From Candidatus Omnitrophota bacterium (lineage in GTDB: Bacteria; Omnitrophota; Gorgyraeia; Gygaellales; Profunditerraquicolaceae), in assembly GCA_003598025.1 (NCBI GenBank), contig QZKH01000003.1, positions 439,221 to 503,220 of the forward strand: a stretch of DNA of 64,000 bases, in the 5' to 3' direction. The first letter of the stretch is position 1; each line of letters begins with the position of its first letter. The notes under the pieces are model-generated. The model did not search any database and was not told the origin of the DNA. It saw only the letters and a list, made by a program, of their open reading frames with translations. This document shows positions 1 through 60,477 of this stretch, one piece after another. Position numbers and translations under genes: made by a program.

Positions 1-521
1 GCAAACTTTTGCAAAGCGCAGTGAATAATTTCTCTGACTATCGGCATCGCACGGTTAACTGTTCCGGAAGCCACATCTGTGATGTCTATAATCCGATTGT
101 TTGAATCGAGACAGACGACCTTAAAGACCTCTGTTTTAAGGTCGAGGAGCTGGGGCATGACGATATCCACAACATCCTTGGCAGAGGCGATTTTCTGCTT
201 CCCGGTGGACACATCGTCCTGTCGATAGCGCCTCCCGATTTCAAGCGCGGCCTGAATATGGGCGATCTTGGCCCCACCCAAACCCTTGAACTCTTTCCAG
301 TCCCGGGCGTCTGTGTGGGCCATGTTCCGGAACGTGCCGAATTTCTTGAGTATCTTGCGGGCGAGGTCAATGGCGCTGGTGCCTTGTGTGCCGGTACGAA
401 GAAGAATAGCCAGAAGCTCCGAATTACTCAAAGCCCCCGCACCCTTTTTGAGGAGTTTCTCTCTCGGCCTGTCATCCTCCGGCCAAGTCCTTATGCCTGA
501 TATTTTTCTTTCCTTCACCAT
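1..521 (-). CDS. radC: RadC-like JAB/MPN domain protein (UPF0758), partial; the 3' end runs off the window start
   Basis: The minus-strand frame is missing from the ORF track because it has no stop in the window. It translates to MVKERKISGIRTWPEDDRPREKLLKKGAGALSNSELLAILLRTGTQGTSAIDLARKILKKFGTFRNM...LGGAKIAHIQAALEIGRRY...VVCLDSNNRIIDITDVASGTVNRAMPIVREIIHCALQ. This is the canonical RadC N-terminus and HhH region. ATG is at 519..521 (rc). Confidence 0.8.
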   Translation of the reverse strand, partial: MVKERKISGIRTWPEDDRPREKLLKKGAGALSNSELLAILLRTGTQGTSAIDLARKILKKFGTFRNMAHTDARDWKEFKGLGGAKIAHIQAALEIGRRYRQDDVSTGKQKIASAKDVVDIVMPQLLDLKTEVFKVVCLDSNNRIIDITDVASGTVNRAMPIVREIIHCALQKF

Positions 522-574
522 TCTTCTCTTCTCTGTTCTTCACTTCTCTAGAATTAAACCGCGATCAAACTGTC

Positions 575-1084
575 CTACGGAAGTACAAAATCGTGGCACT
601 TAATACGAATCTCTTTAAGCTCCTTCAGCACTGCCGCCAAGTCAAACGATTCGCCGCGAAACGTCAAAGTCTGCGTTAAGGGATCATATGCCCTGTGATG
701 ATTTGTAGGGAAACTTCTTCTCATTGCTTTTAATGGATCTATTGCCAGGTCGCTGTAGACCGCCGAAGATTTCCCCTTAAACCATTTTTCTATTCGATCG
801 TCATAGTGTTCGAAATGATTACGTAAGCTACGATCAGAAAGTATATTGTTATCGTCGACTTTAAGTAACTCCCGTAATCTTTCGCCGCGTTCTGTATATT
901 CCGTAGATGGCCAGAGAATTTTCGAGACATTTCCAGCGGCCACAAGAATCGATTGAATAGAACACCAGACTTCAACCTGATCAAAATTGTCCTTGATCGC
1001 CGATAAACGTTTAGCGGCCAATTCTGCAATCTTTGATTGCGTTACAATCTCGCCTATAAAAACCGTTTCAGCAAGTGCCTTCAT
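575..1084 (-). CDS. hypothetical protein with an Rx4H HEPN-like motif (SDRSLRNHFEHYDD); last gene of the AbiE-linked operon
   Basis: 169-aa ORF with a 1-nt gap to the upstream phosphoesterase gene. The RNHFEH sequence fits the R-x4-6-H HEPN signature. No other recognisable family. Confidence 0.5.
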   Translation of the reverse strand: MKALAETVFIGEIVTQSKIAELAAKRLSAIKDNFDQVEVWCSIQSILVAAGNVSKILWPSTEYTERGERLRELLKVDDNNILSDRSLRNHFEHYDDRIEKWFKGKSSAVYSDLAIDPLKAMRRSFPTNHHRAYDPLTQTLTFRGESFDLAAVLKELKEIRIKCHDFVLP

Positions 1085-1085
1085 C

Positions 1086-1622
1086 TTAATTCACTGCGCC
1101 CTTCTTTTCTTCCTTCAAGAATGTCGCAATCACGGAACTGATCTGCTTAAACGCGACTGGATAATAATCCCAAACCTCAACGCAAAGGTTCACGATTATT
1201 GAATTCTCGTTCAGACGTTTAACCTTGTATTTCTCGTGAACATGGCCGCAGAAATTCCACGGCACGTTCGGGTCCGCATCCTCAGCCCGGTGCGTCATGC
1301 AAATATCTTTTGAACCATAATGAATATAGACTTTCGAGATGATCGTATTGAGGCTGTTTTGCCGATCGTGATTGCCTTTTATAAAAATGAGCTTGCCGTT
1401 CAGCCTCTTTTCGAAATGTCTGTATTTCTCCTCACCGCCTTCTTTGCCACCTTTAAATATGAAGTCGCCAAGAAAAAAGACAGTATCTTCTGGCTTCACC
1501 CGCTCATTATGCTTGCGGATGATCGTCTCATTCATCTCCTCGACCGAATCAAACGGCCGATTGCAATACCGGATGATATTGGCGTGCGAAAAATGATAAT
1601 CCGATGTCCACCAGTAGTTCAT
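1086..1622 (-). CDS. compact calcineurin-like metallophosphoesterase (YfcE-like size)
   Basis: N-terminal WWTSDYHFSHANI (the DxH metal-binding motif of metallophosphoesterases). Also GDFIFKG and GNHD motifs. 178 aa. Its ATG overlaps the AbiEii stop (ATGA), so the two are translationally coupled. Confidence 0.75.
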   Translation of the reverse strand: MNYWWTSDYHFSHANIIRYCNRPFDSVEEMNETIIRKHNERVKPEDTVFFLGDFIFKGGKEGGEEKYRHFEKRLNGKLIFIKGNHDRQNSLNTIISKVYIHYGSKDICMTHRAEDADPNVPWNFCGHVHEKYKVKRLNENSIIVNLCVEVWDYYPVAFKQISSVIATFLKEEKKGAVN

Positions 1623-2635
1623 TGTTTGATCCTGTTAATCTCTTCTTCCGCCGTCTTTAATTTCTTCAAAACGCTCTCAAAGGGCGGAGGGTCCTCAAAA
1701 AACATTTCTTGCATCTGCCGATAATCATCATTTAACAAAGCAAGATGCTCATCTAGAGGCATTAATCGAAGACTGCCCGGCTTTGCCAAAGCATAATGCG
1801 CCTTACTGTCTTTAAAAAATAGGGCTTTATGCTCAGCGACCTTTATCAATAAATCGATATTCTGGATAGCTTTGGTGTAAATAGCAGTCCCGATCATCTC
1901 ACCCACATCGTAGTAGTGACGTGACATTCTTGCGCGCAATTTTGAGCCATGGCTTATTGCATGTAATATTGTCGCTTTTTCCCAAAAGGTTCTTTCCGCG
2001 CCCAAAACACGCACCTGCGCGCCTTCAATGGTCACCTTACCGGCCGCGTTAGAAACATACGGTTTGACAGTCATAGCCTCAATAGGCCAATGATCTGATC
2101 GTGCGCCAAGTTCAATTTTTACGACCGGTTGAACATAACCACTCTTGCCATTCTCAATAGCGCTGGGATACGCAAATAAAACGGTTTGATTATCAGGATC
2201 ATCAGGGTCCAGCCTTATCTCCCAATTTCCTATGCCAGATAAAGCAGACCCGATCTTTTGGTCCAGCTCAGGGATAATCACACCGGCAATCTTTTCTTGG
2301 CATGCCTGCTTTAAGCGATCCAGTCGTCTCTGATTTTCTTTAGTGCCCTGCTTTTTATCAGGCTCGATAGATTCTTGGCTTGTTAAAAATGTCCTCTCGA
2401 TTGAAATATCAACATCCTCAGAAAAACGTTTGATAACGTTGTAACACTTTGAGAGCGAGGTGCCTCCTTTAAACGTCAAATGACTGCCTGCTGTGGGCAG
2501 TGAAAAAAGGATCTTAAGAATCCAGCACACCCAGAAATCTTTTTCGATAAGTTGCGGAGTTACGCCAAGATCGTGGGCGACAACATCAAAATAGACTTTT
2601 TTATCCGCATCTTTTAACAATAAAAAATTGTCCAT
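1619..2635 (-). CDS. abiEii: AbiEii/AbiGii-family nucleotidyltransferase toxin (DUF1814)
   Basis: IEKDFWVCWIL...LTFKGGTSLSKCYNVIKRFSEDVDISI. This is the GGTxL...RxSxDxD nucleotidyltransferase motif typical of AbiEii. 338 aa, directly downstream of an AbiEi-like gene. Confidence 0.85.
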   Translation of the reverse strand: MDNFLLLKDADKKVYFDVVAHDLGVTPQLIEKDFWVCWILKILFSLPTAGSHLTFKGGTSLSKCYNVIKRFSEDVDISIERTFLTSQESIEPDKKQGTKENQRRLDRLKQACQEKIAGVIIPELDQKIGSALSGIGNWEIRLDPDDPDNQTVLFAYPSAIENGKSGYVQPVVKIELGARSDHWPIEAMTVKPYVSNAAGKVTIEGAQVRVLGAERTFWEKATILHAISHGSKLRARMSRHYYDVGEMIGTAIYTKAIQNIDLLIKVAEHKALFFKDSKAHYALAKPGSLRLMPLDEHLALLNDDYRQMQEMFFEDPPPFESVLKKLKTAEEEINRIKQ

Positions 2636-2642
2636 AAATCTG

Positions 2643-3242
2643 TCACCCTTGTATTTTCCTGAAAATATCCCCTATCCATGCCGGAGCATAACGGATATCA
2701 TTCATCAGTATATTTTTGTCAGCATCGGACAGTCGTCTTTTAAGTTTTGCCACAACAGTCGAATCAATATTGCCCTGCTTTAAATAACGCAAGGCCTGAA
2801 TGACTAATCCGCTTATTCGCCCGGCTGTTGCCATGTTTCTTGGCGTTGTTCGTTTCAAAACGATCGTCTGCTTACCGATCTGAACTTTCCGATTAGGACC
2901 ATCTGTAAAGAAAACGATCTTGGCCGGAACCTGCTCTGTTAAACCTAACAGATTAGCGGCATATGCGCCGGAAGGCTGAATTTTCAAATTATCTCGTCCC
3001 ACTAATGCTTGAGCAACGCGATCATAATTAGGCGGAAGGTCACCGAAATCCGGATGTTTTACGGGATAATCATATAATCCCCTCGTCAGGCGGCGTATAA
3101 TCCCTGCCTTGGTTAAACGTCCCAACGTTTGGTCTACGGCCATACGGCTCCCGAGGTCAAGAAAGTGCATTGGAGTGAACACCCAACCCCTATGCCTGCC
3201 GTATATCCTGCTAACTATCATATTATCAATGGTTTGTGCCAT
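2643..3242 (-). CDS. abiEi: AbiEi-family type IV toxin-antitoxin antitoxin / transcriptional autorepressor
   Basis: 199 aa with an N-terminal winged-helix-like region. It sits 7 nt upstream of abiEii, which is the standard AbiE arrangement. Confidence 0.75.
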   Translation of the reverse strand: MAQTIDNMIVSRIYGRHRGWVFTPMHFLDLGSRMAVDQTLGRLTKAGIIRRLTRGLYDYPVKHPDFGDLPPNYDRVAQALVGRDNLKIQPSGAYAANLLGLTEQVPAKIVFFTDGPNRKVQIGKQTIVLKRTTPRNMATAGRISGLVIQALRYLKQGNIDSTVVAKLKRRLSDADKNILMNDIRYAPAWIGDIFRKIQG

Positions 3243-3259
3243 TTATACCACCTCTCTGT

Positions 3260-3289
3260 TGTCAGAAAAAATATACACTTTTTCTGACA
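3260..3289 (-). promoter_or_regulatory. perfect inverted repeat TGTCAGAAAAA-N8-TTTTTCTGACA upstream of abiEi; candidate AbiEi operator
   Basis: 11-bp arms with an 8-bp spacer, 18-47 nt upstream of the abiEi start codon. AbiEi proteins are known to autorepress by binding inverted repeats in their own promoter. Confidence 0.5.
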
Positions 3290-3329
3290 GAAAGTCAATC
3301 TATTTTTATGCGCCCGAGCCGCTATCCTA

Positions 3330-3560
3330 AATGTCTACCATCCGGAAATGTCCACTTTTTAGCAGACATTTCGATTTAGTGGACACTTACGTGTCCATCC
3401 ATGTCCATCAAAACGCCCTTTTTTGACCTTCCCGGACGCCTGCAGGACACCCCTAAAATCGCCTGTTTTCCGACGCTGGGCGCTTATTTTAGCCGGGTTG
3501 ACCACTTATGCCCAAACCCAAAAGTGATGGACATGGACATCGATTTTTTTGACCACTATC
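3330..3560. repeat. cluster of TGTCCA/TGGACA half-sites, including the 18-bp palindrome TGGACAC-TTAC-GTGTCCA, and two copies of TTTTTTGACC, inside a GC-rich non-coding island
   Basis: Read directly from the sequence. Six hexamer copies in both orientations (3349, 3380, 3393, 3403, 3529, 3535). TTTTTTGACC occurs at about 3421 and about 3549. No convincing ORF spans the region. Confidence 0.5.
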
Positions 3561-3937
3561 ACTGACTCCCCGCGCCTCGCCCGACCCTCACCCGACACCC
3601 TGTTCCAAGGACCCGTAGCGCCTGCCAGCATAAAAAACCCTATGACCACGCCTCACTGGCATAACCATAGGGACTTGAGTTGCCAAACGCTGTTGATCCT
3701 TACAACGCCCCGACTACCGCCTCCGCCAAGCTCTTCATCGCATTACTATAAATCTGCCACTGGCCAGCCAAAAGTTCGAAGATAAACAGTTTTTTTCATC
3801 AAGGCTTATTCCTTTCTTCGAATCTTTTGGTTGATCCCGAGCGAAGCCGACACCGAGAAAGCCCGAGGAAAAAACCATTGGTGTAAAGAAAACCTTTCTT
3901 CATCTTATACCTTCAGTAAAAAATATAACCGCTCCTA

Positions 3938-60336: not shown

Positions 60337-60363
60337 AAGCCAATGTCCTCCTGTTTGGATTTT

Positions 60364-60411
60364 GTAGGAGTTATCAGCCTGTTGAGGCGTTTATTGGCAA
60401 ACCCCATTGCC
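60364..60411 (-). promoter_or_regulatory. fluoride riboswitch (crcB RNA motif) in the crcB leader
   Basis: In minus sense: GGCAAUGGGGUUUGCCAAUAAACGCCUCAACAGGCUGAUAACUCCUAC. It aligns position-for-position with my recollection (recalled from memory; not verified against a database) of the crystallised Thermotoga petrophila aptamer GGCGAUGAGGCCCGCCCAAACUGCCCUGAAAAGGGCUGAUGGCCUCUAC. The GGGGUU/AACUCC pseudoknot is complementary. A TATAAT -10 box lies at about 60433..60438 (rc). Confidence 0.85.
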
Positions 60412-60477
60412 AGTATTAATCTTCAGTTTATTATACCCCTTAACCTCTAAAAAATCATCTTTTATTTATTGCTGCTA

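Follow-up and report, generated by a model that had tools for sequence, protein, structure and literature searches.

AbiE of Lactococcus lactis and Streptococcus agalactiae and the mycobacterial MenAT systems are two-gene toxin-antitoxin (TA) systems, in which a gene for an AbiEi protein of the winged helix-turn-helix (wHTH) type lies directly upstream of the gene for a DUF1814 nucleotidyltransferase toxin, AbiEii. In a recent preprint, these systems are reclassified as being switched off by antitoxin-induced auto-phosphorylation: AbiEii is neutralized when it phosphorylates itself at T65, its activity returns in vitro on treatment with a Ser/Thr phosphatase, and the reactivating phosphatases are stated to be unknown and their role in toxin reactivation to be unresolved (bioRxiv 10.64898/2026.01.19.700257). 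Here, we analyze a stretch of 64,000 nucleotides from a Candidatus Omnitrophota bacterium (GenBank assembly GCA_003598025.1, contig QZKH01000003.1, positions 439,221 to 503,220; hereafter the window), at the start of which an AbiE pair is extended by a coupled gene for a calcineurin-like metallophosphoesterase (MPP), followed by a gene for a HEPN-like protein of 169 aa and by radC. The AbiE pair belongs to a known family. What is new is a recurrent frame consisting of a DUF6088 gene, a toxin gene and the MPP gene. No paper joining AbiEii and a phosphoesterase was found in the literature searched, in agreement with the initial annotation of this DNA, which had been made from the sequence without database searches and had regarded the architecture as not described.

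The pair in the window is a genuine AbiE pair, as the initial annotation had proposed. The antitoxin gene precedes the gene for a DUF1814 toxin with GG[ST] and [ST]xDxD motifs, an inverted repeat is present at the promoter as in the palindromic operators of AbiE and MenAT, and PADLOC files both genes as AbiE. For AbiEi, the PADLOC profile PDLC02226 matches over the full length (residues 3-197; E = 1.4e-70) and Pfam returns DUF6088 (5.1e-42) along with a weak AbiEi_4 wHTH match at residues 39-57. The curated NCBIfam equivalog TAA_AbiEi is not reached (17.5 bits vs a cut-off of 150), and therefore the window AbiEi represents a divergent branch, which as a DUF6088 protein differs from the antitoxins of AbiE and MenAT. 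AbiEii is matched by Pfam PF08843 over its full length (1.3e-39) and by the AbiEii profile of PADLOC (2.2e-103), and its motifs K56-G-G-T-S and R70-F-S72-E-D74-V-D76 align with MenT4 (6y56), which reads RFSTDLD in the latter motif. The Ser residue at the position equivalent to the phospho-acceptor ([ST]xDxD) is kept in 118 of 120 AbiEii homologues and is also present in the second AbiEii subfamily introduced below.

In contrast to the described systems and to the PADLOC definition, which comprise two genes, the window adds the coupled MPP gene as third and the gene for the HEPN-like protein as fourth gene. The packing of the four genes as initially described was recovered exactly when the junctions were read from the sequence again: the abiEi TGA (2645-2643) and the abiEii ATG (2635-2633) are spaced by 7 nt, an ATGA at 1622-1619 is common to the abiEii stop and the MPP start (4-nt overlap), and a single G separates the MPP TAA (1088-1086) from the ATG of the 169-aa gene (1084-1082). 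The stop codon of the latter is followed by the radC start after 53 nt. Such tight junctions recur in dozens of related loci, with spacings of -4, -1 or +2 nt between AbiEii and MPP genes and 1 nt between MPP and 169-aa genes.

A metagenome scan for the MPP yielded 80 loci (numbered with the prefix L, as are all loci below) with MPPs 83-97% identical to that of the window, and 58 of these loci extend at least 900 nt upstream. In 43 of the 58 the MPP gene comes immediately after a cassette whose first gene is an AbiEi-like DUF6088 gene. Thus, the phosphoesterase is conservedly tied to AbiE-type cassettes and does not represent a housekeeping neighbour, which bears out the linkage suggested by the initial annotation. 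The gene directly upstream encodes an AbiEii of the window type in 24 of the 58 loci (52-99% identity; gaps of -4, -1 or +2 nt) and, in a further 5, an AbiEii of a second subfamily that is preceded by a DUF6577 gene and has only the catalytic motif in common with the window protein. In 14 loci, a Fic-domain protein of 246-360 aa carrying the HxFxDGNGR motif takes this place (e.g. L082:4571-5970, L085, L089, L092, L098, L127, L160). For 11 of these 14, BLAST places an AbiEi-like DUF6088 gene with the same operator-promoter further upstream, i.e. an AbiE-type antitoxin is paired with a Fic toxin. Finally, a RhuM protein occupies the toxin place in L005.

The gene following the MPP gene varies far more. 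Among 64 loci it is the 169-aa gene in 8, radC in 6, hsdM in 2 and another gene in 46. The latter include a gene for an unknown protein of 155-164 aa in 10 loci (L142:6566-7060 and 9 others), and PRiA4/DUF6933 in several. Genes for a kinase or an RNA ligase can also take this place. The 155-164-aa protein is the commonest alternative to the 169-aa protein at this position; it has no Pfam match and is not detected by the profile of the 169-aa family. At 77-78% identity, homologues are found in the arrangements AbiEi-AbiEii-MPP-RadC-HsdR-HsdS (L166) and AbiEi-AbiEii-MPP-DUF6933/PRiA4 (L167). The trio of AbiEi, AbiEii and MPP is not confined to the vicinity of radC and type I restriction-modification (R-M) genes, as shown by L167 and by L278-283, where an AbiEii with 82% identity carries an overlapping MPP gene and is followed by a helicase-nuclease, with neither radC nor the 169-aa gene.

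The exact gene order of the window, abiEi-abiEii-MPP-169-aa, recurs in L081, L113 and L115, and in L082, L127 and L005 the same four-gene order is seen with AbiEii replaced by Fic or RhuM. The fixed four-gene cassette of the initial annotation is not borne out: as noted, the 169-aa gene follows the MPP gene in just 8 of 64 loci, and L003, L008 and L009 have AbiEii followed by the 169-aa gene without MPP. Its central claim therefore holds insofar as AbiE is extended by a coupled phosphoesterase, and is too strong in postulating a single cassette of four genes. The MPP sequence does not track the toxin encoded upstream: the mean distance is 0.134 within types of upstream partner and 0.136 between them, and clusters at a distance of at most 8% mix AbiEii, Fic and second-subfamily partners. 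This is compatible with a substrate common to the different cassettes rather than with one particular protein as partner. As the sequences do not segregate by partner type, the idea that the MPP and the upstream toxin co-evolve was dropped. Identities to the window are discordant even within one locus, amounting in L113 to 98% for AbiEi, 97% for AbiEii, 95% for MPP, 84% for the 169-aa protein and 78% for RadC. Given this and the mixing of partners, the region behaves as a collection of interchangeable modules. Stability is seen for the unit [DUF6088 AbiEi-like]-[toxin]-[MPP], whose most constant frame is formed by the operator-promoter with the DUF6088 gene at one end and the MPP gene at the other. 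The toxin slot can be occupied by AbiEii, from either of two unrelated subfamilies, by Fic or, in one locus, by RhuM, and the slot after the MPP gene is filled by any of the genes listed above or absent, with radC following directly. Overall, we favour the reading that the region probably represents that part of a mosaic defence operon which is nearest to its promoter, with swappable modules in front of an R-M operon.

Table 1. Coordinates of the features of the locus within the window.
Feature	Position	Strand	Basis
abiEi, DUF6088-type AbiEi antitoxin/repressor, 199 aa	2643-3242	-	Pfam, PADLOC
abiEii, DUF1814 nucleotidyltransferase toxin, 338 aa	1619-2635	-	Pfam, PADLOC
Calcineurin-like metallophosphoesterase (MPP), phage-type family, 178 aa	1086-1622	-	PHROG, Pfam
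169-aa protein, large unannotated family, HEPN-like (R88-N-H-F-E-H93)	575-1084	-	motif
radC 5' part (UPF0758_N + JAB), cut by window edge; start codon 521-519	1-521	-	homologue match
Promoter-like site: -35 TTGACT, 17-nt spacer, -10 TATATT	3270-3298	-	consensus scan
Perfect palindrome TGTCAGAAAAA-N8-TTTTTCTGACA, presumed AbiEi operator	3260-3289	no strand	brackets -10
Terminator-like hairpin, 15-bp stem + T-run, ending upstream antiporter gene	3638-3672	-	

The promoter-like site upstream of abiEi (Table 1) scores 10/12 in the consensus scan. TTGAC(A/T) and TATA(T/C)T are kept at the same spacing before the DUF6088 gene in almost every one of the roughly 45 related loci. The palindrome has perfect 11-bp arms that flank the -10 element, and it ends 17 nt ahead of the abiEi start codon. 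It keeps its position in these relatives, Fic-type cassettes included, and its arms covary (CAG/CTG, CAC/GTG, CGC/GCG). Compensatory change in both arms is the signature of a protein-binding operator, and by analogy to the published autoregulation of AbiEi the palindrome presumably is the AbiEi operator. The strong terminator-like hairpin marks the upstream boundary of the operon, and the scan that detected it found no comparable terminator between the four genes. With one promoter and no internal terminator, abiEi, abiEii and the genes for MPP and the 169-aa protein, probably also radC, are most simply predicted to form one transcript.

A second conserved inverted repeat, (A)ATGT(C/T)CACT...AGTG(G/A)ACAT, was noted upstream of the promoter at window positions 3343-3391. 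It also occurs about 85-96 nt before the DUF6088 start in L008, L009, L099-101, L137, L141 and L159; several relatives have it as a tight palindrome, and its arms are 21 nt apart in the window. TGTCCA-like words recur over positions 3329-3545, including a perfect 13-nt inverted repeat (3398-3410 / 3525-3537).

The MPP itself matches Pfam Metallophos (1.7e-6, 29 bits vs a cut-off of 21.5), and its top matches are PHROG 547 'phosphoesterase' (1.3e-40) and, in the PDB, Aquifex aq_1665 (1xm7; 1.2e-7). The best curated match is NCBIfam PdeM (1.3e-11), which stays below its cut-off. All five calcineurin-like motif blocks (DxH, GD, GNH[DE], H, GHxH) are present, and the metal-ligand motifs D8-x-H10, G52-D53, G83-N84-H85-D86, H111 and G126-H127-x-H129 are invariant in 43 homologues. 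The suggestion of the initial annotation that the protein belongs to the MPP_YfcE group had to be given up: TIGR00040 yields 14.6 bits vs a cut-off of 56.25 (E = 0.026), and the closest relatives are the phage phosphoesterase family and PdeM/aq_1665. The signatures of PPP-type protein phosphatases (GDxHG, GDxVDRG, GNHE) are not found; the MPP has SDYHFSH, LGDFIFK and GNHD instead, and neither Pfam and NCBIfam nor PDB sequence searches returned a match to a protein-phosphatase family. Likewise, no match to a characterized Pnkp phosphatase domain was found by sequence. A viral scan detected 535 stretches related to the MPP, and homologues at 51-58% identity are ordinary phage genes located among DNA polymerase B, RNR, PrimPol, RuvC, RecA and RtcB genes.

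These islands repeatedly contain a second, unrelated MPP, an ApaH/PrpE-like protein of 229 aa (L006:6246-6935, L092, L114, L116, L119, L121, L136, L151-154). Its gene lies directly upstream of the 169-aa gene in L006, and in L116 a P-loop kinase gene directly follows it.

For the 169-aa protein no match was obtained in Pfam, PADLOC, NCBIfam or PHROGs and no sequence match in the PDB, and none of 109 members of its family matches any Pfam family. The close family has 793 members, of which most named ones are labelled Omnitrophota, and the superfamily comprises 2,541 clusters at 50% identity with E<=1e-3, 1,399 of them with E<=1e-10. Residues R88, H93 and D95 are invariant in the 109 homologues (27-90% identity), E12, Q16, S54, W58, N89 and E92 are at least 90% conserved, and the pattern R[NHDQS]xx[EDQ]H is matched by 100 of 101 diverse representatives. 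We modelled the protein with AlphaFold2 using the 109-sequence alignment, which resulted in a predicted local distance difference test score (pLDDT) of 91 and a predicted template modelling score (pTM) of 0.87; a run with 20 close homologues only (pLDDT 47.5) was discarded. The model has helices at residues 3-29, 36-57, 61-73 and 85-103, followed by a small sheet and a C-terminal helix, and the RNxxEH motif is located at the start of helix 4. Of the HEPN assignment made initially, the conserved Rx4H motif is supported, and in the model it opens the last helix of a predicted four-helix bundle that is compatible with a HEPN fold without proving it; a profile match to any described HEPN family was not obtained, the Pfam check included, and hhalign of the family against an Abi_2 protein returned a probability of 0.1. 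We regard the family as unannotated and probably of known fold, and give about an even chance to the possibility that, as motif and fold suggest, the protein is a metal-independent HEPN-type RNase that would be a second effector, acting on its own and present only in some loci.

In most loci the 169-aa gene stands alone, amid neighbours that are rich in defence genes and vary from locus to locus. A genome scan for the 169-aa gene returned 80 loci from many phyla, and neighbours were clustered all-vs-all in 79 of them. AbiEii lies immediately upstream in three genome loci only (L003, L008, L009), where the genes overlap and no MPP is present, and a metallophosphoesterase gene lies upstream in three only (L004, L005, L006). 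A same-strand open reading frame ends within 30 nt upstream in about 14 of the 79 loci, and the roughly 70 loci belonging to other phyla show no relation among their neighbours. Defence and mobility genes are frequent among the neighbours and include AbiH, AbiV, HEPN_MAE_28990, GmrSD, Pycsar-type TIR, OLD/GajA-GajB, AriA, DRT, type I methylases (HsdM), integrases and resolvases. Relatives are further present on 22 IMG/VR viral contigs. A role as toxin of a fixed two-gene system was dropped, since clustering of the neighbours gave no conserved partner. With about 2,500 clusters at 50% identity in many phyla and on viral contigs, an R/H/D triad, defence-rich neighbourhoods and no Pfam, PADLOC or NCBIfam profile, the family makes a good candidate for a new defence system consisting of one gene. 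In L040:4124-6875 (a metagenome-assembled genome of Kangiellaceae) and L080:4269-6835 (Flavobacterium), a homologue directly follows a Gabija-like pair of GajA (OLD/AAA_15) and GajB (UvrD).

This family resembles two groups of described systems. As in HEPN-MNT type VII TA systems, a small helical Rx4H protein is encoded beside a nucleotidyltransferase of the Pol-beta superfamily in the window and in L003, L008 and L009, and the solitary occurrence in defence-rich surroundings in most loci is reminiscent of the single-gene HEPN Abi proteins (Abi_2/AbiD/AbiF, AbiV). The 169-aa protein differs from all of these in that profile comparison reveals no similarity to the Pfam HEPN families or to Abi_2, and in the extra beta-sheet and C-terminal helix after the bundle. 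The residue following H93 is Y in the close subfamily only and F in most members; therefore, the AMPylated-tyrosine logic of HEPN-MNT is not conserved in the family. A third likeness concerns prr of E. coli, where PrrC is encoded within the type Ic R-M system EcoprrI. Here too, a type I R-M operon has a gene for a putative HEPN-type RNase embedded in it or beside it: the 169-aa gene lies 44-68 nt before hsdM or hsdR in L003, L008 and L009, and in close relatives it is followed by radC and hsdM. A further shared theme would be RNA damage countered by phage RNA repair, as in prr. In contrast to PrrC, the 169-aa protein lacks an ABC ATPase domain of the PrrC kind and has no sequence relation to PrrC, and the link to type I R-M is seen only in the Omnitrophota-like clade.

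How might the modules act together? By homology, AbiEi would repress the operon promoter, bind AbiEii and induce its auto-phosphorylation, here at S72 (the [ST] residue two positions before DxD), and free, unphosphorylated AbiEii would add nucleotides to tRNA 3' ends and thereby stop translation (bioRxiv 10.64898/2026.01.19.700257; PMC11375011). For the MPP, the gene neighbourhood tentatively suggests an RNA 3'-end phosphoesterase as in Pnkp-type healing enzymes, a possibility that we favour because relatives lie in kinase-MPP-RNA-ligase trios and phage relatives next to PNK-like (polynucleotide kinase-like) kinases and RtcB. Specifically, an MPP with 77% identity is encoded in an overlapping trio of P-loop kinase, MPP and RNA ligase genes (PF09414 with OB domain; L171-175), adjoined by a DUF6088-AbiEii pair, and L144 has the order AbiEii-MPP-kinase. 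Among 126 neighbours of phage MPP homologues, the PNK-like AAA_33 is the commonest Pfam family (4), and KTI12 (2), Zeta_toxin (2), PRK (1), the cyclic-phosphate-processing cREC (2) and RtcB (1) were also found. The combination of kinase, 3'-phosphoesterase and ligase is the RNA repair logic that follows attack by metal-independent RNases (PMC7824862). The MPP would accordingly convert 3'-phosphate or 2',3'-cyclic-phosphate ends into 3'-OH ends, which would feed tailing by AbiEii and be denied to RtcB-type repair ligases, locking in RNA damage. Where present, the 169-aa protein might supply the cutting step, giving a sequence of cut, dephosphorylate and tail. If the MPP does heal RNA ends, a tRNA-tailing toxin would be linked to RNA-end chemistry, extending the conflict between host and phage over RNA damage and repair.

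The precedents are phage T4 Pnkp with Rnl1/Rnl2 and bacterial Pnkp-Hen1, with which the locus shares the calcineurin-type phosphoesterase core and, in the MPP homologues, the company of kinases, ligases, cREC and RtcB. It differs in that the window MPP is a stand-alone protein of 178 aa rather than a fusion domain, is encoded on the host side behind a toxin gene, and has no kinase or RNA ligase gene beside it in the window.

A number of observations weigh against the RNA-healing function and its companion assignments. The RNA-repair neighbourhood comprises one population (the ligase trio), one MPP-kinase locus and about 10% of the phage loci. As association in gene neighbourhoods is the only direct evidence on the MPP substrate, the argument is one of guilt by association in a minority of loci. 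Healing of RNA ends also does not obviously explain the pairing with protein-modifying Fic toxins, which keeps alive the two models discussed below in which the MPP reverses a modification. Furthermore, an AbiEii homologue at 69% identity has no MPP, and neither has one at 62% identity (L285), which is arranged as DUF6088-AbiEii-Abi_2-RadC-HsdR with a different Abi gene, Abi_2, filling the slot between AbiEii and radC. The MPP therefore is a recurrent accessory of this AbiE lineage and not an obligatory part. The HEPN assignment of the 169-aa protein, plausible as it is, draws on a short motif and a common fold. Lastly, similarity to the MPP or the 169-aa protein was the criterion by which the loci were collected, and therefore all linkage frequencies are conditional on that choice; many contigs are short and related populations have probably been sampled repeatedly.

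Alternatively, the MPP could be a dedicated protein phosphatase, or a broad phospho-/nucleotidyl-esterase, that strips the AbiEi-induced phosphate from Ser72 of AbiEii and by analogy auto-AMP from Fic. Co-expression of the MPP would then set up a futile cycle of the kinase/phosphatase kind, and the toxin would fire fast once AbiEi is lost or NTP levels shift in infection. This idea is attractive in view of the reversal of T65 auto-phosphorylation by a Ser/Thr phosphatase in vitro (bioRxiv 10.64898/2026.01.19.700257), and the prerequisites are in place: the acceptor-equivalent Ser is kept in the window AbiEii, in almost all homologues and in the second subfamily, the MPP has all its catalytic metal ligands, in most loci there is an overlap between its start and the AbiEii stop, and its constant upstream partner is the DUF6088 antitoxin, whatever the toxin. 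However, PPP signatures are absent, the nearest families are PdeM, aq_1665 and phage phosphoesterases, and close homologues keep company with RNA ligase and PNK-like kinases rather than with kinase/phosphatase signalling genes. Moreover, constitutive co-expression would oppose the antitoxin, and near-identical MPPs are found behind unrelated toxins. We consider a reactivating function doubtful. As a natural AbiE variant with a coupled phosphoesterase of its own, the locus nevertheless makes the question of reactivation directly testable with three small genes.

It is unlikely that the genes are not functionally coupled at all, i.e. that the MPP and the 169-aa protein are independent cargo, phage-derived or stand-alone defence, stacked in a recombination hotspot between AbiE and radC/type I R-M and co-transcribed since islands are compact. 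Such stacking would account for the fact that every junction is broken in some relative, for the independence of the MPP sequence from the upstream partner, for the discordant identities within loci such as L113, for the mostly solitary 169-aa family and for distant MPP homologues being ordinary genes of phage replication modules. It is at odds with the same kind of upstream neighbour in 43 of 58 MPP loci, as opposed to the far more variable downstream side, with start/stop overlaps kept at AbiEii lineages just 52-58% identical to that of the window, and with the joint movement of the AbiEi-AbiEii-MPP trio into unrelated contexts.

The reactivator model for the MPP and the HEPN reading of the 169-aa protein can also be combined. 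The trio would then be a three-component type VII TA switch, in which the MPP is the missing reactivator that takes the phosphate off AbiEii (or reverses the analogous self-modification of Fic), so that stockpiled toxin is rapidly released on infection, and the 169-aa proteins would constitute a new HEPN abortive-infection system of one gene with a very wide distribution. In this combination, too, the proposal appears unlikely. Metallophosphoesterases also include 3'-5' exonucleases and phosphodiesterases such as Mre11/SbcD and PdeM. Nevertheless, it is quite improbable that the MPP erases the toxin product, which was essentially the idea of the initial annotation and would make it a second antidote or recovery factor clipping AbiEii-added nucleotides from tRNA-CCA as a 3'-phosphodiesterase, or AMP from Fic targets: although PdeM is the best curated match and one chemistry (release of 5'-nucleoside monophosphate with the hydroxyl restored) would serve the two chemically related, nucleoside monophosphate-transferring toxins AbiEii and Fic behind which the MPP is found, the kinase/ligase neighbourhoods are left unexplained and other members of this AbiEii subfamily manage without MPP.

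In the favoured reading as a mosaic operon, the modules are followed by R-M genes, to which radC belongs in this lineage. The radC fragment at the window edge closely matches a Pfam-verified RadC at L005:7486-8259 (RadC 1.4e-38, UPF0758_N 6e-29), whose gene overlaps hsdM by 4 nt (L005:7486-11212). RadC-HsdR(-HsdS) arrangements are found in L166 (5200-9537) and L285 (5847-8020), and in relatives radC either overlaps hsdM by 4 nt or lies 2 nt before hsdR. Full-length RadC (UPF0758_N + JAB) is encoded by the first, translationally coupled gene of type I R-M operons in this lineage, and the clade nearest to the window has radC after the 169-aa gene, with translational coupling of radC to hsdM-hsdM or hsdR-hsdS. 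A housekeeping radC was rejected on account of these junctions. The initial annotation, which had taken the gene for one common on mobile elements, requires amendment in that radC heads a type I R-M operon in the relatives and is not simply a mobile-element marker.

The GC content of radC is 0.52 and thus well above the 0.43-0.46 of the four neighbouring genes, the latter deviating little from the mean of 0.42 for the window. We considered and dropped a prophage or an island linked to a tRNA: no tRNA gene was found in the window, the GC content of the four genes is near the mean, and the sole IMG/VR contig with the order MPP-169-aa-radC has these genes at its extreme end. On this contig (L176 / L198, IMGVR_UViG_3300049640_001177), the MPP is 96% and the 169-aa protein 89% identical to those of the window, and the island may lie against a prophage, or the contig may have been wrongly classed as viral. 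Far from the locus, at window positions 60358-60420 on the minus strand, a fluoride riboswitch (crcB motif, RF01734; 57.9 bits vs a gathering score of 34) is the sole Rfam match in the window.

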